In this document: positions 14,394 to 32,574 of the stretch, piece by piece
Position numbering within the stretch: the stretch's first letter is position 1
How the letters are laid out: each line of letters begins with the position of its first letter
The notes under the pieces: model-generated
Seen by the model: only the letters and a program-made list of their open reading frames with translations
What the model was told of the DNA's origin: nothing
Databases searched by the model: none
DNA from: an uncultured Chloroflexia bacterium
GTDB lineage: Bacteria; Chloroflexota; Limnocylindria; Limnocylindrales; CSP1-4
DNA length: 64,000 nucleotides
Direction of reading: 5' to 3'
Assembly (NCBI GenBank): GCA_963748625.1
Contig: CAVVJT010000006.1
Coordinates: forward strand, 32,001-96,000
Program-made: the position numbers and the translations under genes

Positions 14394-15752
14394 GTGGACG
14401 ACACCGCGACCGGCGCGATCCCCCTGACCGGCGACGCCACGCCGGAGGTCGACCCGGAGGCGGGGGCCCGTCCCACCGCGCTGTTGCCGATGACGCAGCT
14501 GATGCGGATCTCGGCCTACTGGCTGGGCCTCACCGCCATCGATGCCGCGGTCGGGTTGTTCATCACCAATCGTGTCGAGTTCGACGGCCTGGTGCCCAGG
14601 GACGACGTCGGCAAGTCGCTGTTCATGATCGGCATCGGCGCCGCGATCGTGGGAATCATCATCCAGCCCACCGTCGGCTACATCAGCGACTACACCGTTT
14701 CCAGGTGGGGTCGGCGCAAGCCGTACATCGTCTTCGGGTCCCTGCTGGACGTGGTGTTCCTGATCGGGATCGCCATGGGGAACTCGGTCCTCATGCTCGC
14801 GGCCTTCATGCTGCTGCTCGCCGTCAGCACCAACATCGCGCGCGGTCCATTCCAGGGCTACATCCCGGACCTCGTCGCGGAGCCGCAGGTCGGCATGGCG
14901 AGCGGGATGGTGGGCCTCATGCAGGTGGTCGGGAACGTCACCGGGTTCCTCCTCGTATCGCTGTCCGTCACGCTCGGCGTCATGGAGCTCTCGCTCGTGG
15001 CGGTTGCGATCGTCGAGCTCGTGACCATGGCCAGCGTGGTCCTCAAGGTCGGAAAGGGCATGCCGCCCAAGCCGCGCCACGGCAAGTCCTGGGCACGCAT
15101 CGCACGCGAGGCCTGGGCGACCGACATCCTCCGGGAGCGGTCCTACATCTGGTTGCTGGTGTCCCGGCTCCTGTTCCTGGTCGCCGGCTCGCTCCTCGTC
15201 AACTTCGTGGTCATCTACCTCGGGCGCGCCTTCTTCATGTCCAAGGAGGAGGCGAACTCGATGTACGTCGTCATCCTGATCGTCGTCATCGCCGCCAACG
15301 TGGTGGCGATCCTGCCCGCCTCCCGCCTGTCCGACCGGATCGGGCGCAAGCCGCTGATCTTCGCAGCGTGCGCTGGCGGTGCCGCGGGTGCGGGGATCAT
15401 CGCCCTGACACCGTCCATCCCGATCGCGATGGTCGGCGCCGCGCTGTTCGGCGCCGCGAACGGCAGCTTCCTGGCCGTCGACTGGGCGCTGATGACCGAC
15501 ATCATCCCGCGAGCGTCGGCCGGCCGCTACATGGGCATGAGCAACGTGGCCACCGGTTCGGCCGGGCCTCTCTCCGTCGCCATCGGCGGGGTCGTGCTGG
15601 ACCTCGTGACCTCGGCCGGCAACGAGCCCCTCAGCCCAAGGGTGGTGTTCATTCTCGCCGTCGCGTTCTTCGCGAGCGCAGCGGTCACCCTTCGCCCCGT
15701 CGTCGAGCCGCGCCGCGACCGCCACCCACGGGCGGAGGCCGCAGCCGCCTGA
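14394..15752 (+). CDS. MFS transporter
   Basis: About 12 hydrophobic segments; GYISDYT.SRWGRRKP and SDRIGRK motif A. Confidence 0.88.
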   Translation: MDDTATGAIPLTGDATPEVDPEAGARPTALLPMTQLMRISAYWLGLTAIDAAVGLFITNRVEFDGLVPRDDVGKSLFMIGIGAAIVGIIIQPTVGYISDYTVSRWGRRKPYIVFGSLLDVVFLIGIAMGNSVLMLAAFMLLLAVSTNIARGPFQGYIPDLVAEPQVGMASGMVGLMQVVGNVTGFLLVSLSVTLGVMELSLVAVAIVELVTMASVVLKVGKGMPPKPRHGKSWARIAREAWATDILRERSYIWLLVSRLLFLVAGSLLVNFVVIYLGRAFFMSKEEANSMYVVILIVVIAANVVAILPASRLSDRIGRKPLIFAACAGGAAGAGIIALTPSIPIAMVGAALFGAANGSFLAVDWALMTDIIPRASAGRYMGMSNVATGSAGPLSVAIGGVVLDLVTSAGNEPLSPRVVFILAVAFFASAAVTLRPVVEPRRDRHPRAEAAAA

Positions 15753-15756
15753 CCGG

Positions 15757-16755
15757 TCAGTCGCCGATCTCAGCCACGGCCGCGGCGCCTCCTCTCGACG
15801 CCGGGTCGTGCCGGCCAGCGTCGAAGCCGAGGTATGCGCGCAGCCACGCTGCCGATCGAGCACGCCCGATGCGGACGGTCGCCCGGGGCTCCGTGCGGAA
15901 CGCGTGACCCCACCGGACCGCCCGGTCGCGCTGGATCCGCAACGCGGCCACCCACGCGGACGCGCTCAGGAAGGCGAAGGGGTGGTGCAGCCGCCACCAC
16001 CATGGCACGGCCGACCAGATGAACACGAGGTAGTCCGCCCGGAAGGGTCGCTCCCCGAAGCCGAACAGGACCTGGAGCTGGACGATCGTCATCGGCAGCA
16101 TCACGAGGGAGAGCAGCCCGGACAGGGCCAGGAACACCAGCCCCCATGAGCGCGCCCGCGGCGGCAGCACGAACCACAGGGGCGCCGGGACCCACTTCAT
16201 CCAGGTCGCCAGGCCCCAGATCAGGCCGCCGACCCTGGGGCCCGTGAACTGGGCGCCGAACAGCGCGAGCGCCAGCAGCAGATTGATGTTCCCCGTGTCG
16301 AGGTTGGCCGCCATCGGGAACCAGATCAGCCCGACGAGGATGGCGGTCGGCAGCGGCCGCCGCGTGTAGGCCCAGCGGATGGACCACAGCAGCAGCAGGA
16401 TCTGGACCCCGCGCCACGTGAACCAGGCCACCTCCCACGGCAGTAGCGCCCACGGGACGAACAGCGGGAGCATCCAGGGCGAGTAGACGTAGGGCAGGAA
16501 CGGTCCAAGTGGGTGGTACGGGTCGCCACCCTCCAGCCAGATCCGCACCGCGGCCCAGTAGGCGCGGGCATCGGCGCCCGCGGTCTCGCCGCGGGCCGTC
16601 ATGCCGGCCAGGGCGAGCGCGAAGACGACAATGAGGATGCCCATCGCGACGATGCGCCGGGGTTCGCGGATCCGGGTCGCCTCCTGGTGGAGGGCACGCC
16701 GGATCACGCCCGCGCGTCGGGCCGGCCGTCGGTGGAGCGTCGCCTGGGGGTCCAT
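15757..16755 (-). CDS. Glycosyltransferase family 87 (DUF2029) membrane protein
   Basis: ADARAYWAA...GGDPY, PYVYSPW, GNINLLL, K..P motifs; multiple TMs. Confidence 0.75.
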   Translation of the reverse strand: MDPQATLHRRPARRAGVIRRALHQEATRIREPRRIVAMGILIVVFALALAGMTARGETAGADARAYWAAVRIWLEGGDPYHPLGPFLPYVYSPWMLPLFVPWALLPWEVAWFTWRGVQILLLLWSIRWAYTRRPLPTAILVGLIWFPMAANLDTGNINLLLALALFGAQFTGPRVGGLIWGLATWMKWVPAPLWFVLPPRARSWGLVFLALSGLLSLVMLPMTIVQLQVLFGFGERPFRADYLVFIWSAVPWWWRLHHPFAFLSASAWVAALRIQRDRAVRWGHAFRTEPRATVRIGRARSAAWLRAYLGFDAGRHDPASRGGAAAVAEIGD

Positions 16756-16812
16756 CGACCTGCATTCTCGCGCGTTCAGGCCCGGTTGGGGCGCTGCTAG
16801 ACTCCCGGGACC

Positions 16813-17646
16813 ATGCCGCACGGGACAGTCATCGTCATCGGCGGGGCCGAGGACAAGGTCCGCGATCGGGTCATCCTCGGCCAATTCGTCGCGCTCGCGG
16901 GCGGGCCCGAGGCGAGGATCGCCGTGATCGCAACGGCCAGCTCCTTCGGCATGGAGGCGGGCGACCGGTACCGGTCCGTGTTCACCGAGCTGGGTGCTGC
17001 GAACGTGGCGCCGCTCAACGCCGTGAGCCGCGCGCAGGCGAACGACGAGCACGCGGCGCGAATCATCGGCGACTCCACCGGCATCTTCATGACCGGCGGC
17101 AACCAGCTCCGGCTCTCGTCGATGCTGGGCGGGACGCGCCTCGCCGACGCGATCATGGCCCGCTTCATGGCCGGTGCCGTGGTCGCAGGCACCTCCGCCG
17201 GGGCAAGCGCCATCTCGTCGCACATGATCGCGTTCGGGGCGTCGGGCGCCACGCCCAAGCACCGGATGGCCCAGATCGCCGCGGGTCTCGGGTTGCTCCC
17301 GGGCGTCATCGTGGACCAGCACTTCCAGCAGCGGAACCGGCTGGGGCGGCTGCTGTCGCTGATCGCCCAGAACCCGTCGCTGCTGGGCCTCGGCGTGGAC
17401 GAGGACACGGCCGGCGTCGTGGGCCCGGACCAGGTGATGGAGGTCATCGGGCGCGGGTCCATCACCGTGGTGGACGGCGCGGCGTCCGAGACCGACGCCT
17501 GGGAGATCCGCGGCCACCGGCCCCTCATGATCAGCGGGGTGGTGCTGCACAGCCTGCCGGCGGGCTACCGCTTCGACATTCGTCGGCGGACGCGGGTCTC
17601 GGCGCCGGACCTGCAGGTCATCGAGGGCGAGATCGCCTCGAGCTGA
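16813..17646 (+). CDS. cphB: Cyanophycinase
   Basis: IIGGAEDK, FMTGGNQLRL, GTSAGA (Ser), VDQHF (His), GVDEDT (Glu). Confidence 0.92.
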   Translation: MPHGTVIVIGGAEDKVRDRVILGQFVALAGGPEARIAVIATASSFGMEAGDRYRSVFTELGAANVAPLNAVSRAQANDEHAARIIGDSTGIFMTGGNQLRLSSMLGGTRLADAIMARFMAGAVVAGTSAGASAISSHMIAFGASGATPKHRMAQIAAGLGLLPGVIVDQHFQQRNRLGRLLSLIAQNPSLLGLGVDEDTAGVVGPDQVMEVIGRGSITVVDGAASETDAWEIRGHRPLMISGVVLHSLPAGYRFDIRRRTRVSAPDLQVIEGEIASS

Positions 17647-17749
17647 CGCGCGTGCTCAGCCTGGCGGCGACGTTGGCTCGGGGGAGGCTCGACCGAGCGC
17701 GACGCCCAGCGATTACACTCCGGTTCCCCACGCACGCGAGGAGGGTCCA

Positions 17750-20719
17750 GTGGCGCAGGCGGATCCCGCTTCCCCGAAGCGGCCGAGGAAGACCGCGGCT
17801 CCGGCCGCCGACACGACCGCGGACGGGGGCGCAGCCGCGGCTCCGGCCGCCGCCACCACGCCGGACGCCGGCGCCACGCCGGAGGCGGACCCGGCCACGC
17901 CGCGGCGGAGGGCCTCGGACGCGATCCCGGGCGGCCTGCGTCCCGAGCCCACCCTGCGCATCCTCGAGACCCGCGTCCTGCGCGGCGCCAACTACTGGGC
18001 CAGGGAGCCCGTGATCCGCCAGGTCGTGGATCTGGGCGTGCTCGAGGAGTTCCCGAGCAACACGATCCCTGGTTTCGTCGACGCCCTCGTCGGGTTGCTG
18101 CCAACCCTGGAGGAGCACGCCTGCTCCCTGGGCCGGCGAGGCGGGTTCATCACGCGCCTCCGTGATGGGACCTGGGCGGGCCACGTGGCCGAGCACATCG
18201 CCCTGGAGTTCCAGAACCTCGCCGGCACGGACGTCCGCCACGGCAAGACCCGCGGCACCGGCGAGCATGGTCGCTACAACGTGATCTTCGAGTACCGCGA
18301 GGAGCAGGTCGGCATCGAGGCCGGCCGCAAGGCCGTCGGGCTCGTCAACCACCTCGTGGCGCCCCACGACCCGGCCTTCGACTTCGATCTCATGGCGGAG
18401 CTCGAGAGCCTGATCCTCATGGCGGAGCGGCTCGCCTTCGGGCCCTCCACCCAGGCGCTCATCGACGAGGCCGCGGGCCGCGACATCCCGTACATGCGCC
18501 TCGACCGCTACTCGCTCGTCCAGTTTGGCCAGGGTGTCCACCAGCAGCGAATCCGCGCCACGATGACCAGCCGCACGAGCGGCATCGCGGTGGACATCGC
18601 GTCGGACAAGAAGCTGACCAACCGCCTCCTCGACTCGGCAGGGCTCCCGGTGCCGCGCTCGGAGATGGTGGAGACCGAGGACGAGGCCGTCGCCGCGGCC
18701 CGCCGCCTGGGTTATCCATGCGTCATCAAGCCGCTCGACGGCAACCACGGCAGGGGCGTCGCGCTGGACCTGCTGAACGAGGCCGCCGTCCGCGCCGCCT
18801 GGCCCGAGACGCTGCGCCAGAGCCGCGGCGGCGACGTGATCGTGGAGTCGTACATCACCGGCCGCGACTATCGCTGCCTCGTGATCGGCGGCAAACTCGC
18901 GGCGGTCGCCGAGCGTGTCCCGGCCAGCGTCACCGGCGACGGCGAGCGGACGATCCGCGAGCTGGTCGAGGTCACCAACGCCGACCCGCGCCGGGGCCTC
19001 GGGCACGAGAAGGTCCTCACCCGTATCAGGCTCGATGCCAACGCCGAGGCGGTCCTCGCGGGCCAGGGCTTCGCCCCCGACGACGTGCCGCCCGCCGGCG
19101 CCTTCGTCAAGCTCGCCCTCACGGGCAACATGTCCACCGGCGGCACGTCCATCGACCGCACCCTCGAGGCCCACCCCGACAACGTGGAGATCGCCGAGAC
19201 GGCGGCCCGCGTCGTCGGCCTCGACATCGCCGGCATCGACTTCATCTGCCCGGACATCGAGGAGCCGGTCCGCGAGACCGGCGGCGGCATCGTCGAGGTC
19301 AACGCGGCCCCCGGCTTCCGGATGCACACGCATCCAACCGAGGGTGAGCCCCAGTACGTCGCAAAGCCGGTCATCGATCTCCTGTTCCCGCCCGGCACTC
19401 CGGCCCGCATCCCCATCCTCGCCGTCACCGGGACCAACGGCAAGACGACGACCGTGCGGATGACCGCCCACGTCCTCAAGCTGATGGGCAAGCGCGTGGG
19501 CATGACGTCCACCGACGGCATCGTCATCGACGGCCGGCTGATGAAGCGCGGCGACATGAGCGGGCCGAAATCGGCACAGATGGTCCTCCAGAACCCGACG
19601 GTGGACACGGCGGTGTTCGAGGTGGCCCGCGGCGGCATCCTTCGCGAGGGCCTGGGCTACGACCGCAACGACGTCGCTGTGGTCACCAACGTCACCGGCG
19701 ATCACCTGGGGATCGGCGGCATCGACACGCTCGGCCAGCTGGCCAACGTCAAGGGCGTGGTCGTCGAGGCCGTGCCGCGGGCGGGGACCGCGGTCCTCAA
19801 CGCCGACGACCATCTCGTCTACCGGATGGGACGCCACTGCAGCGGACGCGTAGTGCTGTTCTCGATGTCGAAGGCGAAGGGGGAGGAGGGCTTCGATCGC
19901 GTCGACGGGCACGCCGCGCGTGGCAACGCCGCCTTCTGTCTCGAGGACACGCCCCAGGGCGAGCTCATCGTGCTGCGCCACGGCCCGCGCAAGATGCCGG
20001 TCCTCTACACCCACCTCATTCCCGCCACGTTCGGCGGGCGGGCGCGGATGAACGTCGCCAATGCGCTCGCCGCCGCTGCCGCCGCGTGGTCGATGGGCGC
20101 CCACATCCACGACATCCGCCAGGGCCTGAGGACCTTCTCGACGTCCTTCTTCCAGGCGCCGGGCCGCCTCAACCTGGTGGAGGTCGCGGGGACGCGCGTG
20201 GTCATCGACTACTGCCACAACGTGGACGGCATGCGCCAGCTGGCGGACTTCGTCAACCGGATGATGGTGGAGCCGCAGACGCGGGCGGGCGTGCTGGGAG
20301 CCTCGGCCGCACCGCCGCGAACCGGGCGAGCCATCGGCGTCATCGGGATCCCGGGCGACCGCCGCGACCAGGACCAGCGCGAATACGGCGCCCTGGCCGC
20401 CACCGCGTTCGACGAGCTCGTCATCCGCGAGGACCGCAACCTGCGCGGGCGGCAACCCGGCGAGTCGGCGTCCAACGTCGCCGCGGGGATCCGTGCCGCC
20501 CGCGGCGAGGGCGGTGGCCGGGCCGTGCGGATCGACAAGATCCTTGACGAGGCGTCCGCCGTGCGCGCGGCCCTGCGTCGCTCGGCCCCGGGTGACCTCG
20601 TGGTGGTCTGCGCCGACGATGCAGTGGACGTGTACCGGCAGGCGATGGCACTCGCCGGGCGCAACCAGGGCGGCACCGCCTTCGCCGACCCGGGCGAGCT
20701 GGAGGCTCCGCTGGGATGA
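17750..20719 (+). CDS. cphA: Cyanophycin synthetase CphA1
   Basis: N domain (HACS...GHVAEHIALE), ATP-grasp (KPLDGNHGRGV, EVNAAPGFRMH), Mur-like domain (VTGTNGKTTT, EVARGG, PGRLN). Confidence 0.95.
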   Translation: MAQADPASPKRPRKTAAPAADTTADGGAAAAPAAATTPDAGATPEADPATPRRRASDAIPGGLRPEPTLRILETRVLRGANYWAREPVIRQVVDLGVLEEFPSNTIPGFVDALVGLLPTLEEHACSLGRRGGFITRLRDGTWAGHVAEHIALEFQNLAGTDVRHGKTRGTGEHGRYNVIFEYREEQVGIEAGRKAVGLVNHLVAPHDPAFDFDLMAELESLILMAERLAFGPSTQALIDEAAGRDIPYMRLDRYSLVQFGQGVHQQRIRATMTSRTSGIAVDIASDKKLTNRLLDSAGLPVPRSEMVETEDEAVAAARRLGYPCVIKPLDGNHGRGVALDLLNEAAVRAAWPETLRQSRGGDVIVESYITGRDYRCLVIGGKLAAVAERVPASVTGDGERTIRELVEVTNADPRRGLGHEKVLTRIRLDANAEAVLAGQGFAPDDVPPAGAFVKLALTGNMSTGGTSIDRTLEAHPDNVEIAETAARVVGLDIAGIDFICPDIEEPVRETGGGIVEVNAAPGFRMHTHPTEGEPQYVAKPVIDLLFPPGTPARIPILAVTGTNGKTTTVRMTAHVLKLMGKRVGMTSTDGIVIDGRLMKRGDMSGPKSAQMVLQNPTVDTAVFEVARGGILREGLGYDRNDVAVVTNVTGDHLGIGGIDTLGQLANVKGVVVEAVPRAGTAVLNADDHLVYRMGRHCSGRVVLFSMSKAKGEEGFDRVDGHAARGNAAFCLEDTPQGELIVLRHGPRKMPVLYTHLIPATFGGRARMNVANALAAAAAAWSMGAHIHDIRQGLRTFSTSFFQAPGRLNLVEVAGTRVVIDYCHNVDGMRQLADFVNRMMVEPQTRAGVLGASAAPPRTGRAIGVIGIPGDRRDQDQREYGALAATAFDELVIREDRNLRGRQPGESASNVAAGIRAARGEGGGRAVRIDKILDEASAVRAALRRSAPGDLVVVCADDAVDVYRQAMALAGRNQGGTAFADPGELEAPLG

Positions 20720-21006
20720 GCGACGCGGGCGTGCCGTGACGGGCTCCGGTGGGCCGCGGGGCGCGGAGCTCGAGGTCCGCGCACCTGGCGAACCCATACC
20801 CCCGGCCGCGCTGCTCAGGATGGCTCGCGTTGGGTGTATCGGATCCGGGCCACGACGGTGCGGAGGAGCAGTCGACGAGCGACCACATCGGCCGATCGTA
20901 CTGGGCTGATCTGAGCACGAATCGGGGTTGCCGACCCCCACGGGCCGAACGCCGCCGCCTGCCGGGCGCATCATCGTCTCGACAATGCACGGCAGGGTGG
21001 GGAGCC

Positions 21007-21560
21007 ATGGAACGAGACAGCGCACCACGACGGTTCGCGACCCTGGTGCTCGCTGCAGCGGCAATCGGATCTCCACTCGCGGGTTGTGGCACGCCGACGA
21101 CACCGTCGGCTGTGCCGAGCCCTTCCAGCGACCAGCCGGCACCCGCGACCCGGCAGGGGGAAAGCCGGGCCGCGACCGGAGTGTGCGTCACTCAGCCGGA
21201 CGCGAGCAGGGCAGTCGCTCCGGACATGGCATCAACCTCGACGAACCAGTGGCTCGTCACGTCGGCGGTCGTCCCGTCGGCCCTGCCGGACAGGTAGACC
21301 TGCCAGACGAGCCGCTGCTCGCCGGCCTGGGTGAAGGTGATCGGCAGCTCGGCCGTGTCCCCCTTGACGCCAGTGGCGTCGGTGATGACGGTGGCGCTGC
21401 GGACTCGGCGGCAACGCGTGCGACCGCCGGCGTGGGCGGGTCGGCGTACGGCCGGGACACGTTGACGATGGCCGCCCGGCGGCCCATCTGTCGCCCTCTG
21501 GCGGCGAACCGTCCTCTGGGCGGCCAATTGCCGTCGTAGCGGCTGCGAGGGACTGGTCTG
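21007..21560. pseudogene. Disrupted lipoprotein: signal-peptide fragment on +, PepSY-like C-terminal fragment on -
   Basis: + strand MERDSAPRRFATLVLAAAAIGSPLAGC with RBS; - strand ...RLVWQVYLSG...HWFVEVDAMSGATALLASG* ending at 21192, with frameshifts. Confidence 0.4.
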
Positions 21561-21639
21561 GTCGCGCCCAGGGGACCGAGCGTCCGGGTGCGGCGACGAA
21601 CGGTCCGCCCAGCGGACCGGGGAGCCCCCGGAGCCCGCC

Positions 21640-23403
21640 CTACTCCCGAACGCGCCCCTGGTCGGTGAGCCTCGGCGCCAGGGCCAGGAGTTCCGTGGCC
21701 ACGTCAACCCCACGCGCCCCCAGGCGCTCGAGCAGCGCGAAGACCTGGTCCCGATCCTGGTGGCAGAACAGCACGACGACCCGCGGCGCGTCGGGGCGCC
21801 CATCGGCGGCGACGCTGCCCGCACCGACCAGCTCCGCATCGAGGGCCATTGCCTCACTCTCGTAGACCGGGACCGTCGCTGGGTCCAGGCCACCCTCCAT
21901 GAGCCCCTCGCCGATGACCCGCACGATCTCCGCGCGATCACGTCCGCGCAGGTAGGCGAGGGTCTCCTTGAGCACGACCCGCTGCGCCCGCTGCGCGGCG
22001 AGGCGCCCGATCCCCCGCAGCGTGTCGTCCGGCCGGTCGCCGGCGGTCCCGATGATGGCGGTCACGGGCGCGACCCCTTCGGCCTCCCCGCCGGCGATCG
22101 CCGACGCGACGTCGAGGATCGCCTCCGTGCCGGCCTCGTTGTGCGCGAAGTCCACGATGATCGTCCGACGGCCGAGGCGGAACAGGTTGAGTCGCCCCGG
22201 CGAGAGGTCTGCAGACGGCCGGAAGTCCAGGAGCCCGGCCGAGACCTGCTCGCGCGTCGCACCCAGCGCCCGTGCCCCGCCGGCCGCCGCCAGCGCGTTC
22301 GCGACGTTGTGCCTCGCCAGGCCGCCCAGCGCGACGGGCAGGTCGGCGACGTCGAGCAGGGCTTGCGCGGCGGCGCCGTCCCATTCGACCAGCCGGCCCC
22401 GATCGAGGACCCAGGCGAGCCCGCCCGCGCGCCGGTGGCGCGCGAGGAGCGGCGAGGAACCCGGGTCCATCGAGAAGTAGGCCACGCGCGCTCGTACCCG
22501 GCGCGCGATGCTCGCCACGAGCGGGTCGTCGGCGTTGAGCACGACGAGTCCGCCGGGCTTCGTCACGCGGCACACCGTCGCCTTGACCTCGGCGAGCTCC
22601 GGGAGCGTGTGGATGCCCTGCAGATCGAGGTGGTCCGCCGAGATGTTGGTGAACACACTCGCCTCGTTGGACTCATAGCCCATGCCCCGCAGGACGAGGC
22701 CGCCGCGCGCCGTCTCCAGGACCGCCACGTCCACGTCGTCCCGGCGCAGGACCGCCGCCGCGCCACCCGGCCCGGTCCAGTCCCCGGCGTCGACCATGCG
22801 CTCGTCCACGAGGATCCCGTCGCTGGTCGTCGTGCCGACGTGGTGCCCGGCCAGCAGCAGGATGTGGGTGATCAGCCGGGTGACGGTCGACTTGCCGTTG
22901 GTCCCGGTGATGGACACGACGGAGATCCGCCGATCGGCGTCGCGGATCCAGGCCGGCGGGGCAGCGCCGGCCTCCGCGATCCGGGCCTCCCAGCTGTCCA
23001 CGAGGCGTTCCTGGGTCATCGTCAGGTGCACGCGACGGGCCGCCGAGACAGACCGGCCGGCGAGGTCCACCGCGGCCTCCGCGAGCAGGCGGGCCCGCTC
23101 GGCGCCCGACCAGGGCCAGGTGATCACCCATCGGCCGGCATCCGACGCCCGGTGGACGACCGCGGGACCCGCATGCTCGCCATGGTCGGCGCGGAGCCGC
23201 CGGGTCCAGGCCACGATATCCGCCACGGGATCCGGCCACTCGCGCATCGGCACCGGACGGGCGAGATGCACGGTGGACCCATCCGAAGGCGTCCGGGATC
23301 CCTTCCAGGTGCGCGTCCGGCCGACGGTGACTTCGACCTTGACCACCGGCAGCAGCCGGTAGACGTTGGGGCCCTCGAGCAGCCGGATCTCCACGAGTCG
23401 CAC
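21640..23403 (-). CDS. CphA-like Mur-ligase protein (degenerate N domain + M domain, no ATP-grasp)
   Basis: Start MRLVEIRLLEGPNVY resembles the CphA N-domain start; ITGTNGKSTVTR, TSDGI, GDWTGP, ETARGG, DHLDLQGIHTL, PGRLN, DFAHN align with the CphA M domain. Confidence 0.8.
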   Translation of the reverse strand: MRLVEIRLLEGPNVYRLLPVVKVEVTVGRTRTWKGSRTPSDGSTVHLARPVPMREWPDPVADIVAWTRRLRADHGEHAGPAVVHRASDAGRWVITWPWSGAERARLLAEAAVDLAGRSVSAARRVHLTMTQERLVDSWEARIAEAGAAPPAWIRDADRRISVVSITGTNGKSTVTRLITHILLLAGHHVGTTTSDGILVDERMVDAGDWTGPGGAAAVLRRDDVDVAVLETARGGLVLRGMGYESNEASVFTNISADHLDLQGIHTLPELAEVKATVCRVTKPGGLVVLNADDPLVASIARRVRARVAYFSMDPGSSPLLARHRRAGGLAWVLDRGRLVEWDGAAAQALLDVADLPVALGGLARHNVANALAAAGGARALGATREQVSAGLLDFRPSADLSPGRLNLFRLGRRTIIVDFAHNEAGTEAILDVASAIAGGEAEGVAPVTAIIGTAGDRPDDTLRGIGRLAAQRAQRVVLKETLAYLRGRDRAEIVRVIGEGLMEGGLDPATVPVYESEAMALDAELVGAGSVAADGRPDAPRVVVLFCHQDRDQVFALLERLGARGVDVATELLALAPRLTDQGRVRE

Positions 23404-23492
23404 GGTTCGGAAACTCTACGCGAGCGGGCACCGCGGCGACTGCCCGCTCCGGCGCCACGTGGCGCGGGGTCGTGTGCCGATAGACTGGCCGC

Positions 23493-24743
23493 ATGGTTCG
23501 CTCCGACAACGCCCTCGTCGCACCGGAAGAGCTCGCCGCGCTGCGGGCGAGCATCGAGCGGGCCTACCCGGCCTATCTCGCCGACCTCGAACGGCTCGTG
23601 AACACGGACTGCGGCAGCTACACGAAGGCCGGCGTGGACGCCATCGGCCACTGGACCGCGGAGCGGCTCCGGATCCTGGGCTTTGCGGTGACGGCGCACG
23701 AGAACGACGAGGACCTGGGCGAGACGGTCATCGGCGAGCTGCGAGGGACCGACCCTGACGGGCCGACGCTCCTCTGCATCGGCCACATGGACACGGTCTT
23801 CGACCCCGGGACGGTCGAGGAGCGGCCGTTCGCCATCCAGGGGGGCATCGCCACGGGCCCCGGTGTCACGGACATGAAGAGCGGGCTGCTGGCAGGGCTG
23901 CACGCGATCGCCGCCGTGCGCGAGGTCCTGGGCGGCGTCCCGTTCGCGCGCCTGGTGTTCGTCGCCAATCCGGACGAAGAGATCGGGTCGCCGGTGTCCA
24001 CGCCGCACATCCGGCGGCTCGCCCGCGAGGCCGATGCATGCCTGGTCTTCGAGTGCGCGCGCGGGAACGGCGACATCGTGTCGTCGCGGAAGGGGACGCT
24101 GGACCTGGTCGTCACGGTGACCGGGCGGGCGGCCCATGCCGGCGTTGAGCCCGAGAAGGGGCGCAGCGCGGTCCTCGAGGCCGCCCGGATCACGCTGGAC
24201 CTCCACGCGCTCAACGGGCGCTGGGCGGGGGTCACGGTCAACGTCGGGGTCATCGAGGGCGGCACGCGGCCGAACGTTGTCGCGGAGCGATGCTCGCTCG
24301 AGGTGGATGTGCGGGCGGTGACGCGCGAGGGCCTGGAGGGGGTCGAGGCGGCGATCGCCCGCGTCCTCGCGCCGCAGCTCGTGCCGGACGTCACGGTGGA
24401 GTCCGTCCAGACCGGCCGTCACTGGCCGATGGAGAAGCTGGAGCGGTCCTGCAGGCTCGTCGAGCGTGCCGTGAGCCTCGCCGACGAGCTGGGCTTCGAG
24501 CTCCGTGACGCCATGACCGGCGGAGCGTCGGACGCGAACACGACTGCGGGCATGGGCGTGCCCACGCTCGACGGGCTGGGCCCCATCGGCGGGATGGACC
24601 ACTCGCCGCAGGAGTACCTGGAGGTCGCGTCGATCGTTCCCCGGACCACGCTGCTCGCCGCGTTGATCGTGGCCGTCGGGCGCGACCCCGAAGTCCGGCG
24701 CTGGCGGGCCGAACGCCTGGCGAGGACGGGTGTCGCGCGGTGA
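23493..24743 (+). CDS. M20 family metallopeptidase (glutamate carboxypeptidase-like)
   Basis: GHMDTV, GPGVTDMKSG, DEEIGS, AAHAG, GGASDAN, H of MDHSPQE. Confidence 0.9.
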   Translation: MVRSDNALVAPEELAALRASIERAYPAYLADLERLVNTDCGSYTKAGVDAIGHWTAERLRILGFAVTAHENDEDLGETVIGELRGTDPDGPTLLCIGHMDTVFDPGTVEERPFAIQGGIATGPGVTDMKSGLLAGLHAIAAVREVLGGVPFARLVFVANPDEEIGSPVSTPHIRRLAREADACLVFECARGNGDIVSSRKGTLDLVVTVTGRAAHAGVEPEKGRSAVLEAARITLDLHALNGRWAGVTVNVGVIEGGTRPNVVAERCSLEVDVRAVTREGLEGVEAAIARVLAPQLVPDVTVESVQTGRHWPMEKLERSCRLVERAVSLADELGFELRDAMTGGASDANTTAGMGVPTLDGLGPIGGMDHSPQEYLEVASIVPRTTLLAALIVAVGRDPEVRRWRAERLARTGVAR

Positions 24744-25126
24744 GTCGCCGCCACGTCGGGAGCGGAGGGCCCTGGGAGGCACGCGCCGGCTACTCGCGGG
24801 CCCTGGCCGTGGGCGACGCCTGCTTTGTGGCGGGCACCACGGACGCTGGGCCTGACGGCGAGTCGCGGAACCCGGGCGACGCCGCGGGCCAGGCGCGCGC
24901 GGCATTCGCGATCGTCGAGGGCGCGCTGATCGAGGCGGGCTTTGCCCTTGACGACGTGGTCAGGACCCGGATGTACGTCGTGGACCCGGGCGATGCCGAC
25001 GTCGTCGCGGCGGTTCACGGCGAGCTGTTCCGGCATGTTCGGCCGGCCGCAACCCTGGTCGTGGTCGCGGGTCTGATGCGCCCCAGCCTCCGCGTCGAGG
25101 TGGAGGCGGAGGCCCGGCGCGGCTGA
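24740..25126 (+). CDS. RidA/YjgF family protein
   Basis: GYSRA, VAGTT, DVVRTRMYV, RPAATLVVV, VEVEAEA. Confidence 0.88.
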   Translation: MSRRHVGSGGPWEARAGYSRALAVGDACFVAGTTDAGPDGESRNPGDAAGQARAAFAIVEGALIEAGFALDDVVRTRMYVVDPGDADVVAAVHGELFRHVRPAATLVVVAGLMRPSLRVEVEAEARRG

Positions 25127-25202
25127 GCGGAGGCGGGCCTCCGCCATGCGGACCTGCGCCCGTCGCGCCCGTCGCGGGCTGTGAGCCTGGTTCCTGTCGG
25201 AT

Positions 25203-25463
25203 GCCCGTGGAGCGGACCGTGTCCGGCCATCTGCCACCGGTGGGTCGGGTCGGGTGGACACCGGGCACCGTGGTGCGTGCCTGGGCTCGCCATCACGCGC
25301 GCGACCCTCCCGCCGCTGGTCCATCACGCGGACCGTAGGCGAGACGCTCCTGCCTACCGTCCGCCACCCGGACGGATGGCGGAAGGACCGCCGTCCGGAG
25401 CCGATACCGTCCGTGGAGCGGACCGCTGGCGGGATGGGGCGAGATAGCGTCCGCTGGGCGGAC
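25203..25463. repeat. Cluster of degenerate 15-bp palindromes (GTCCG-N5-CGGAC), REP-like
   Basis: Units at 25203, 25319, 25359, 25409, 25449; the reverse complement of the last also occurs at 21603-21617. Confidence 0.5.
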
Positions 25464-25515
25464 AATCGGCGGGAAGCGGGGCGGAAGTGGGGCGGGAACG
25501 GCCCACCACGTCCGG

Positions 25516-31308: not shown

Positions 31309-32574
31309 ATGACGACGGAGAAGGCAACGGCGCCGATCAACGCCTGGCAGGTCGCGCAGCACCAGTTTGATCTCGCGGCCGAGATGCTCAACCTTGACCC
31401 GGGCCTGCGCAATGTGCTGCGCGAGCCGCGCCGCGAGCTCACGGTCCACTTCCCGGTGCACATGGACGACGGTACCGTCCAGGTCTTCACCGGCTATCGC
31501 GTCCAGCACAATCTCGGCCGAGGCCCCGCCAAGGGCGGCATCCGGTACCATCAGGACGTCACGCTCGACGAGGTCAAGGCCCTCGCGATGTGGATGACCT
31601 GGAAGTGCGCGGTCGTGGGTATCCCGTACGGTGGCGGCAAGGGCGGCGTCAGCGTCGACCCCAAGAAGCTGTCCCAGCGGGAGCTCGAGGGCCTCAGCCG
31701 CAGGTACTTCACCGAGATCTCGATCCTCATCGGACCCGAGCGCGACATCCCGGCGCCGGACGTCAACACGACGCCCCAGATCATGGCCTGGTTCATGGAC
31801 ACGTATTCCATGCACGTCGGCTACACGGTCCCCGGCGTGGTGACCGGGAAGCCGATCAGCCTGGGCGGCTCGGAGGGTCGCAACGAGGCCACCGCGCGCG
31901 GCTGCGTGTTCACGATCGTGGACGCGGCCAAGCACCTCGGCATGGACCTCGCCAGGACGACGACCGTCGTCCAGGGCTTCGGCAACGCCGGCTACATCGC
32001 GGCGCGGCTCATGGCCGACGAGCGTTCGACGATCATCGCGGTCTCCGACACGGGCGGCGGCATCAAGAACGAGGACGGCCTCGACGTCGACCGCGTGCTC
32101 AACTGGAAGAAGGAGCACGGCACCGTCGTCGGGTTCCCGGGCAGCACGACGATCACGAACGCGGAACTCCTGGAGCTGCCCTGCGACATCCTGATCCCGG
32201 CCGCCTACGAGAACCAGATCACCGCCGCGAACGCGGACAACGTGAAGGCCAAGATCGTCGCCGAGGCCGCCAACGGTCCCACGACACCCGAGGCCGACAA
32301 GATCCTGGCGAGCAAGGGCGTGTTCATGATCCCGGACATCCTCGCGAACGCCGGCGGCGTGACCGTCAGCTACTTCGAGTGGGTGCAGGACCTGAACCGC
32401 GACCACTGGAGCGAGGCCGTCGTCAACGCCAAGCTCAAGGAGATCATGGACCGCTCCTTCGGGGAGGTCCTCGCGATGGCGCATCTCAAGGACGTCGACA
32501 TGCGCACGGCGGCGTACCTCGTCGCCGTGAAGCGCGTCGCCGACGCGACCGCCCTCCGCGGCCTCTACCCGTAA
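31309..32574 (+). CDS. gdhA: Glu/Leu/Phe/Val dehydrogenase (glutamate dehydrogenase)
   Basis: GPAKGGIRY, GGGKGG, DIPAPDV, QGFGNAG, EAANGP, NAGGVTVSYFEW. Confidence 0.93.
   Translation: MTTEKATAPINAWQVAQHQFDLAAEMLNLDPGLRNVLREPRRELTVHFPVHMDDGTVQVFTGYRVQHNLGRGPAKGGIRYHQDVTLDEVKALAMWMTWKCAVVGIPYGGGKGGVSVDPKKLSQRELEGLSRRYFTEISILIGPERDIPAPDVNTTPQIMAWFMDTYSMHVGYTVPGVVTGKPISLGGSEGRNEATARGCVFTIVDAAKHLGMDLARTTTVVQGFGNAGYIAARLMADERSTIIAVSDTGGGIKNEDGLDVDRVLNWKKEHGTVVGFPGSTTITNAELLELPCDILIPAAYENQITAANADNVKAKIVAEAANGPTTPEADKILASKGVFMIPDILANAGGVTVSYFEWVQDLNRDHWSEAVVNAKLKEIMDRSFGEVLAMAHLKDVDMRTAAYLVAVKRVADATALRGLYP

Follow-up and report, generated by a model that had tools for sequence, protein, structure and literature searches.

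A CphA-like protein with N and M domains and no ATP-grasp domain beside cphA1 in a Limnocylindrales genome: a candidate ligase of the cyanophycin pathway

Why does a genome that encodes a three-domain cyanophycin synthetase keep, right beside it, a second protein of the same family from which a whole domain is missing? This question is raised by a 64,000-nucleotide stretch of DNA (the window; positions 32,001 to 96,000 of the forward strand of contig CAVVJT010000006.1, assembly GCA_963748625.1) from an uncultured Chloroflexia bacterium of the Limnocylindrales. The metabolism of cyanophycin, a polymer in which nitrogen is stored, is considered to require a single synthetase (CphA1 or CphA2), a cyanophycinase and a dipeptidase. 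In the window, a cphA1 gene with the domain order N-G-M, in which G is the ATP-grasp domain and M the Mur-ligase domain, is followed by a gene for a 587-residue CphA-like ligase without the G domain, here called the N-M protein. The reading that we favor, with a probability of about 0.5, is that the N-M protein is an active, stand-alone ATP-dependent Mur-type ligase of the cyanophycin pathway that would act on side chains or chain ends, and that the residue it adds is probably not arginine; we infer the acceptor, the chemistry and the non-arginine substrate. The gene and the parts of its product are as follows.

21640..23403, minus strand: N-M gene (P0001), 587-residue CphA-like ligase without G domain; open reading frame and translation, GTG start
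22954..23403, minus strand: N domain, residues 1–150; CphA-type, without Cx19HxxEH
22219..22941, minus strand: Mcore, residues 155–395; central Mur-ligase domain with the ATP site, aligned with SuCphA1 485–~720
21709..22218, minus strand: Mlid, residues 396–565; C-terminal Mur-ligase domain
22885..22911, minus strand: P-loop ITGTNGKST, residues 165–173; K171 is the counterpart of TeCphA1 K499
22630..22635, minus strand: catalytic Asp-His pair D257 H258, corresponding to SuCphA1 D585 H586 in an ungapped alignment to 7lg5
21940..21969, minus strand: substrate loop KETLAYLRGR, residues 479–488; aligned with (K/R)ED.(D/N)-LRGR of CphA1 and with DED-PR of the genome's own MurE

Domain content and predicted fold

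Many long open reading frames are spurious in the window, which has 72% GC. The codon bias of the N-M gene (GC content of 0.91 at third and 0.52 at second codon positions) is that of a real gene. A first-pass annotation, made from the DNA letters, had described a 587-residue reading frame beside cphA together with a set of CphA-like motifs; the frame is present as described and each motif was found, namely TGTNGK (residues 166–171), SDGI (194–197), GDWTGP (207–212), ETARGG (230–235), DHLDLQGIHTL (257–267) and PGRLN (402–406). Residues 155–525 match positions 474–835 of the 862 positions of the NCBIfam model TIGR02068 (E = 1.9e-110), and the 370.3 bits of this partial match stay below the curated cut-off of 850 bits. 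The other NCBIfam scores of the protein are 102.8 bits for MurE (TIGR01085, cut-off 257.3, not reached), 46 for FolC, 36 for MurT and 26 for PgsB. Pfam places Mur_ligase_M (PF08245) at residues 165–375 (78.2 bits, gathering threshold 24) and Mur_ligase_C (PF02875) at residues 403–522 (31.7 bits, gathering threshold 28.4). No Pfam match at E ≤ 0.01 was obtained for an ATP-grasp family, for PF18921 or for DUF4938 (PF16292, gathering threshold 32 bits), and Pfam reported no Mur N-terminal UDP-binding domain. The closest relatives of solved structure are CphA1 of Synechocystis and of Trichodesmium (E = 1e-74 and 1e-70; residues 157–522 on 485–840), followed by MurE at E = 1e-13. The M domain of the neighboring CphA1 is 36% identical to the N-M protein, which is therefore not a recent copy of that neighbor.

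The N domain runs straight into the P-loop at about residue 155, with no G domain between them. A BLAST comparison of this N-terminus with the CphA N domain gave a weak match (residues 1–39, E = 0.032), and a profile of 32 N-M N-termini compared with a CphA1 N-domain profile by hhalign gave a probability of 97.8% (E = 8e-13, 122 columns). By this profile-profile comparison and the predicted structure, the N-terminus is a CphA-type N domain. In CphA1, Cx19HxxEH is described as a cryptic metallopeptidase site that makes primers and is found in 83% of the CphA1 proteins, according to passages of PMC9262961. The motif is missing from the N-M protein: the Cys loop is deleted, HxxEH is aligned with DIVAW, and no Cys occurs in residues 1–160 or elsewhere before residue 278. 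The first-pass description of a start that mirrors the CphA N domain and lacks its Cys/His metal motif is thus upheld by hhalign, structure and alignment. Conservation within the N domain is highest at its first residues, where R7, G11, P12 and N13 are each kept in at least 90% of 88 family sequences. This start corresponds to the M-contacting loop of CphA1, for which a hydrophobic Y14/I17 loop of the N domain packing on the M domain is described in part of the same source (PMC9262961).

An AlphaFold2 model of the N-M protein, built from the 88-sequence alignment and no templates, has a mean predicted local distance difference test score (pLDDT) of 93.2 and a predicted template modeling score (pTM) of 0.93. 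The top Foldseek match of the model is CphA1 (7wae, E = 3e-37). VIA-align superposed residues 1–562 of the model on chain residues 1–877 of TeCphA1 (7wae_A) with a Z score of 39.8 and a root-mean-square deviation of 2.3 Å over 498 residues, skipping the G domain; Z scores were 36–42 over 501–508 residues for SuCphA1 entries and about 25 over 347–384 residues for MurE entries. As the M domain comprises only about 410 residues and the superposition about 500, the N domain superposes along with it. The N and M domains are thus predicted to hold the mutual arrangement that they have in CphA1, with the G domain missing. Overall, Pfam, TIGR02068 and the structure bear out the first-pass architecture of N and M domains without G and with an intact P-loop, and the catalytic Asp-His pair is likewise intact.

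Family tree, ATP site and substrate loop

How far does this protein extend as a family, and is it a truncated CphA1? Matches were obtained for 6527 of 8000 word-sharing candidates, with CphA1 proteins among them; the top 120 have lengths of 556–624 residues and are 70–89% identical to the N-M protein and named "cyanophycin synthetase" (JGI) or "Mur ligase family protein", Candidatus Limnocylindrales (NCBI). More than 100 clusters of 556–624 residues have at least 70% identity to it. A protein atlas contributed no more than names of clusters and taxa. A search of 1.84 billion cluster representatives gave 1219 proteins at E ≤ 1e-30; among the best 150 of these, many have 530–600 residues and an M domain that starts at about residue 150–190. 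Of 59 scanned representatives of 519–650 residues, all contain Mur_ligase_M and 58 contain Mur_ligase_C, and a few contain a weak PF18921. P0195 (573 residues) matches DUF4938 at 5e-29 (102 bits, residues 4–273) and represents clade B of the tree described below. Unusual relatives were also seen (P0138, P0173 and P0272), which comprise a 972-residue tandem M-M protein with two Mur_ligase_M and two Mur_ligase_C domains, a 745-residue N-M protein with a C-terminal TPR_5 domain, and a 602-residue fusion of peptidyl-tRNA hydrolase and Mur_ligase_M.

A first tree was computed from 97 M-domain rows by quick search under LG+G4, with the genome's own MurE as outgroup. The CphA1 M domains form one clade with a Shimodaira–Hasegawa-like approximate likelihood ratio test (SH-aLRT) support of 97, which also holds three short and six intermediate-length proteins, perhaps fragments or products of scattered secondary loss. 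Outside this clade, the N-M proteins form two groups: clade A (32 rows, support 81) contains the window protein and those of the genome groups f1, f3 and f18, and clade B (27 rows, support 98) contains those of group f31 together with P0195 and is sister to CphA1 (SH-aLRT 80). A second tree, for which five Mur outgroups and the C20 mixture model were used, joins clade A with clade B as sisters (91) and puts the outgroup Mur_C3 inside clade A as a rogue long branch. In the trees, a long branch separates the genome's own MurE from both the N-M and the CphA1 groups. Since the N-M M domain lies outside the CphA1 clade, the safe conclusion from the trees is that the N-M lineage is old and not a recent truncation of a present-day CphA1. 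We do not claim an order of sister or ancestor for the N-M and CphA1 M domains, as the rooting differs between the two trees. The grouping of the M domain was a point on which the first-pass annotation had agreed beforehand to stand or fall, and profile scores, BLAST, trees and structure all place it with CphA, far from MurE, FolC and CapB.

Is the M domain likely to be active? All 88 aligned family members agree at 27 columns, among which are G167, N169, K171, T173 and R176; G207, D208 and G211; E230, R233, G234 and G235; N253, D257 and H258; K274; N369; R404; D418, H421 and N422; G455, D456 and R457; and R486. Ungapped alignments with 7lg5 and 7wac pair TeCphA1 K499, T500, T522 and E558 with K171, S172, S194 and E230, and R404 and H421, both invariant, appear by alignment to be the counterparts of TeCphA1 R731 and H748. 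The exchange K499A is reported to impair TeCphA1 in passages of PMC9427784, and the double mutant D585A/H586A to inactivate the M site of SuCphA1 in passages of PMC9262961; the counterparts of the latter pair, D257 and H258, are invariant in 88 of 88 sequences. Residues tied to ATP and Mg binding and to catalysis in the CphA1 papers are invariant or conservatively replaced across the 88 members. The GD..GP and ETARGG loops are common to the N-M proteins, in which they are invariant, and to CphA1, and the genome's own MurE has neither. From these residues, the M domain of the N-M protein looks catalytically competent.

The proteins of clade A (32) and clade B (27) were compared by column with the M domains of 28 CphA1 proteins, and nearly all positions conserved in CphA1 are kept in the N-M proteins. 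The clear exception is the loop that precedes the invariant RGR, which has the consensus (K/R)-E-D-x-(D/N)-L-R-G-R in CphA1. Its positions compare as follows.

Loop Glu: CphA1 27/28, clade A 17/32, clade B 11/27
Loop Asp (T481 column): CphA1 27/28, clade A 0/32, clade B 4/27
Loop D/N position: CphA1 D or N in 22/28, not kept in clades A and B
Extra aromatic residue (Tyr484 column): CphA1 gap in 25/28; clade A Tyr in 32/32; clade B 18 Tyr, 4 Phe and 4 His of 27

In the subfamily of the window protein (23 sequences, at least 55% identity), the loop reads K-E-T-x-x-Y-L-R-G-R; all 23 have the K, T, Y, L, R, G and R, and where CphA1 has D/N the residue varies (A, G or M). At the same columns the genome's own MurE has D-E-D-P-R, which we take to be the DNPR motif that selects the incoming diamino acid. 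Thus, the acidic residues of the CphA1 loop are lost and a Tyr is inserted at the columns of that MurE motif, which suggests that the residue added by the N-M enzyme is probably not arginine; CphA1's acidic arginine loop would have been given up, if the homology with DNPR holds. This rebuilt loop, at columns aligned with the amino-acid-selecting motif of MurE, is the new observation here. A change of the loop from acidic to basic, with an acidic amino acid as the added residue, was also considered: R, K or H stands at the D/N column in 25 of 32 clade A proteins. This column has A, G or M in the window subfamily, and the idea of an acidic amino acid substrate was therefore dropped.

The first-pass annotation had proposed that arginine or another amino acid is ligated; the loop argues against the former and favors the latter. 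The proposal that the N-M protein is an arginine-adding helper, which would carry out the reaction of the CphA1 M domain in trans on bare Asp side chains or on first beta-Asp-Arg units, possibly as a hetero-oligomer with CphA1, is accordingly one that we regard as unlikely, though with points in its favor. The M domain is closest to CphA1 M domains, and the RGR of the loop and all catalytic residues are held in common with CphA1. However, the Glu and Asp that are each kept in 27 of 28 CphA1 proteins and the D/N of 22 of 28 are not retained, and a Tyr is inserted, where an arginine pocket would be expected to be acidic. Such a helper also seems redundant, because the CphA1 of the window has an intact M domain and the primer-making Cx19HxxEH.

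In the favored reading of a ligase for a residue other than arginine, the N-M protein would in effect be a CphA1 stripped of the ATP-grasp domain that extends the backbone, with the N and M domains forming one rigid unit, and this unit would bind a cyanophycin-type acceptor. The ATP site (K171, S172, S194, E230, N169, R404 and H421) and the D257-H258 pair would serve to phosphorylate a free carboxylate of the acceptor, and an amino acid seated in the Mlid loop K479-E-T-x-x-Y-L-R-G-R488 would then attack the phosphorylated carboxylate through its amino group. The result would be cyanophycin with another residue at the chain end or in a side chain, as a cap or as a minor second side chain. Since an N-M enzyme could not extend the backbone, it would depend on CphA1 for its substrate.

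The locus and its linkage to cphA1

Is such a dependence on CphA1 visible in genomes? The neighbors of the N-M gene in the window are as follows.

14394–15752, plus strand: major facilitator superfamily (MFS) transporter
15757–16800, minus strand: piece of an open reading frame between the MFS gene and cphB; weak GT87 glycosyltransferase match (E = 1.4e-08); excluded by the codon-bias filter; extends into the cphB region of the opposite strand
16813–17646, plus strand: cphB-type cyanophycinase (Peptidase S51), PF03575 at E = 1.2e-22
17750–20719, plus strand: cphA1 (N-G-M), TIGR02068 at 1126 bits against a cut-off of 850; PF18921, ATP-grasp and Mur_ligase_M/C; Cx19HxxEH in the translation
20720–21639: spacer of 920 bp between the two stop codons of the convergent cphA1 and N-M genes
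23493–24743, plus strand: M20 metallopeptidase, carboxypeptidase G2-like; Pfam M20 and M20_dimer; divergent from the N-M gene, with a spacer of 89 bp
beyond the M20 gene: AzlC, gamma-glutamyltranspeptidase, MFS and DegV

Among 401 genomes sampled from the window's phylum, scored with three candidates per genome at E ≤ 1e-20 and with absence meaning not found with the N-M query, 62 contain a match, distributed by group as follows.

f1, f3, f18 and f31: N-M type gene in 12, 16, 8 and 7 genomes
f14, f67 and f7: CphA1 only, in 5, 2 and 1 genomes
other groups: 11 genomes with MurE-level matches only, one of them G038

CphA1 is present in 42 of the 43 N-M genomes, the exception being G301, in which cphA is deleted and the N-M gene is broken. 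In group f1, 12 of 23 sampled relatives are without an N-M match, and the same 12 are without a CphA1 match. In addition, a scan across phyla with one genome per species returned 77 loci, of which 23 contain an N-M type reading frame; a G-domain-bearing CphA1 lies in the same locus (within 17 kb) in 16 of these 23, with one more uncertain. Whole genomes were also searched with the N and G part of CphA1 for four lone loci and one f31 genome, and CphA1 turned up elsewhere in the genome in all five. By record titles, the carriers are Actinomycetota (Kribbella, Terrabacter, Nocardioides and metagenome-assembled genomes), Chloroflexota/Thermomicrobiota, Gammaproteobacteria (Luteimonas and Lysobacterales), Myxococcota (Plesiocystis and Nannocystis), Planctomycetota and Acidobacteriota. 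The first-pass annotation had named co-occurrence with cphA in advance as a point on which its proposal could fail, and co-occurrence is what both the phylum sample and the loci of other phyla revealed.

Gene order was compared by tblastn of the window proteins on 14 regions (5 of f1, 4 of f3, 2 of f18 and 3 of f31). The arrangement with cphB-cphA1 convergent to the N-M gene and the M20 gene divergent from it was observed in 5 of 5 f1 and 4 of 4 f3 regions; both f18 regions have cphB-cphA1 convergent to the N-M gene and are without the M20 gene. In all of the f1, f3 and f18 loci inspected, cphA1 is preceded by a cyanophycinase gene. In proteobacterial, myxobacterial and planctomycete loci, the N-M gene follows cphB and cphA1 directly on the same strand, and the frames abut or overlap in four. 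Such a position right behind cphA1 in several proteobacterial and myxobacterial loci would fit a stoichiometric partner and is a further point for the arginine-adding helper set out above. The spacer between cphA1 and the N-M gene ranges from about 0.2 to 2.5 kb in relatives; in the window, its plus strand carries an apparent gene remnant with a lipoprotein-like start (ATG near 21007, lipobox LAGC) and then a Pro/Ser-rich stretch, and its minus strand carries a protein-like C-terminal piece of about 65 codons that ends at 21192, with no clear start.

In G301, a genome of the same genus that is 94% complete, the flanks of the locus are kept (C24:171000-190500), and cphB and all of cphA except the last 59 codons are lost. 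Codons 1–82 of the N-M gene are missing there and the rest lies in three frames; the M20 gene has a frame break at codon 329/330. This is a natural co-loss, in which the N-M and M20 genes decay beside a cphA remnant. Contig C6 (125 kb), which carries the window, is collinear with C10:714626-844437 of the same bin at 70–83% nucleotide identity, with 102 of 125 kb covered. As the bin has 4.6 Mb and 7.7% contamination and relatives have 2.6–3.8 Mb, this collinearity suggests that the bin holds pieces of two related organisms; the apparent second copy of the cph/N-M block on C10, considered as a paralogue, is an orthologue instead. The reading frame of the N-M copy on C10 (locus C10:792000-810000) breaks at about codons 346 and 536, and that of cphA1 in G349 falls into three frames. 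These two sets of frame breaks may be indel errors of long reads and not pseudogenes, both assemblies having few contigs.

Could the N-M gene then be a truncated, paralogous copy of cphA that is decaying or whose product lacks catalysis, and that serves no purpose of its own or only a structural or regulatory one? A whole domain is missing, and frames are broken in the C10 copy and in G301, as such a copy would be expected to look. However, the frame is intact in the window and in dozens of genomes, the 27 invariant columns include every catalytic residue, the M-domain trees place the protein outside the CphA1 clade, and the C10 breaks may be read errors. We consider this explanation very improbable.

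Which enzyme might cleave cyanophycin dipeptides in this lineage? The known beta-Asp-Arg dipeptidase families IadA (TIGR01975), IaaA (PF01112) and AstE_AspA (PF04952) were not found in the bin, and in 26 genomes of the family IadA is above its cut-off in 0 and IaaA in 1. The M20 neighbor scored 289 bits with PRK06133 (cut-off 349, not reached) and matched the PDB entry 1cg2 at E = 2.5e-44. It may be the cyanophycin dipeptide hydrolase of the lineage, or a hydrolase that matches the N-M ligase. An Rfam scan of 16000–25500 gave no match at E ≤ 0.1, and a consensus scan of 20500–23700 found neither promoter nor terminator. In public sequencing runs, the best run holds at most 0.17 of the sampled words, and assembled contigs are mostly 90–95% alike and are therefore from relatives. 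Short contigs over parts of the N-M gene occur in metatranscriptome X20; they may be DNA carry-over and hence are no proof of transcription.

Several observations weigh against the reading as a non-arginine ligase of the cyanophycin pathway. Gene neighborhood gives linkage, not substrate. In the phylum sample, 8 genomes with CphA1 showed no N-M gene; CphA1 can thus do without the N-M protein. The three f31 regions contain none of the window's neighbors; there, the N-M gene, which is of clade B, is remote from cphA1 and follows proS and proC, and in locus L047 (7448-10317) of genome G223 it overlaps by 19 bp with a gene for a 423-residue unknown membrane protein with a hydrophobic C-terminal half, for which no Pfam match was obtained and which occurs in f31 loci only. 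The argument from the loop rests on the role taken for the MurE DNPR motif, selection of the incoming amino acid, and on sequence alignment rather than coordinates. The final Arg of ETARGGILR is replaced by Leu in clade A (21 of 23 close relatives), and the acceptor may thus differ too. Lastly, the literature searched yielded no biochemical or genetic data on any N-M member.

Some of the same observations would suit a ligase with a product other than a polymer (for example a dipeptide, beta-aspartyl or other, or a small peptide) or with another polycarboxylate as its target. Such a ligase would stand near cph genes only through a shared nitrogen and amino acid economy. The Arg-to-Leu change in ETARGGILR of clade A is compatible with another acceptor, an f31 member of clade B stands apart from cph genes beside proS and proC, and some members have extra domains such as TPR. 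Against this stand the retained N domain and its predicted rigid packing on Mcore, which in CphA1 form the polymer groove, the near-complete tie to cphA1 at the genome level in the sample, and the decay of the N-M gene where cphA is deleted (G301). We hold this alternative to be rather doubtful, and the favored reading remains that of a ligase acting on cyanophycin.

Comparison with known ligases and what the family may mean

What distinguishes the N-M proteins from the ligases already described? With CphA1 (TIGR02068; 7LG5, 7LGQ, 7TXV, 7WAC, 7WAE) they have in common the N and M folds, the same packing and the same gene cluster, as well as the P-loop, the Mg ligands, the catalytic Asp-His pair, the GD..GP and ETARGG loops and the RGR motif. 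Unlike CphA1, they have no ATP-grasp G domain and thus no backbone extension, no Cx19HxxEH, a loop of the form KET..YLRGR, and an M domain outside the CphA1 clade. CphA2 is likewise a reduced member of the same family for which a single active site is needed; its G domain is active and its M domain truncated and inactive, as described in part of PMC10273328. The N-M protein is the opposite reduction, without G and with a complete M domain that has its catalytic residues and looks active, and the first-pass description of CphA2 as the inverse case agrees with that source. The Mur ligases (MurE, MurC-F, pMur, MurT, FolC and CapB/PgsB) share PF08245, PF02875 and the ATP-dependent acyl-phosphate chemistry; unlike CphA, they score far lower against the N-M protein, which has CphA-specific loops. 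Proteins that combine DUF4938 (PF16292) with Mur_ligase have the N-M architecture and length, whereas the window protein belongs to the other branch, clade A.

In the literature searched, no paper on the N-M architecture was found, to which subscription papers and supplements may add; the first-pass statement that no characterization was known is in line with this. The searched passages of a bioinformatic survey (PMC10206079) do not mention truncated or M-only forms, and a listing of the Mur-domain family from 2025 names MurC-F, MurT, CapB, CphA and FPGS in the relevant part of PMC11915815. No function of DUF4938 was given in the literature found; a knock-out of a DUF4938 gene in Pseudomonas left peroxidase secretion unaffected, according to a passage of PMC13592688. 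The name "CphA3", considered as a possible designation, refers in the literature to an Aeromonas beta-lactamase and is irrelevant here.

On a more speculative level, the N-M proteins might constitute a third, unrecognized class of the cyanophycin family that adds a residue other than arginine, either at the chain end, as a cap that would halt CphA1 and protect the polymer against the exo-acting cyanophycinase, or as a second kind of side chain. In Limnocylindria-like bacteria, this class might be paired with an M20 hydrolase that removes or recycles the added residue, and CphA1 could even have arisen by insertion of an ATP-grasp domain into an ancestral N-M scaffold. This extended picture is tentative, and we think it improbable as a whole.

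What would an N-M ligase mean for cyanophycin metabolism? A conserved extra ligase that accompanies cphA1 in at least six phyla would imply either that the polymer is chemically more than beta-Asp-Arg or that its length or turnover is controlled in a way not yet described. If a ligase that decorates the poly-Asp backbone with another residue were indeed at hand, it would be a ready means of tailoring cyanophycins, for which there is demand as biomaterials. Culturable, harmless carriers (Kribbella, Terrabacter, Luteimonas and Plesiocystis) allow a direct test of the question. Overall, the N-M family bears on the origin of the three-domain CphA1 machine.

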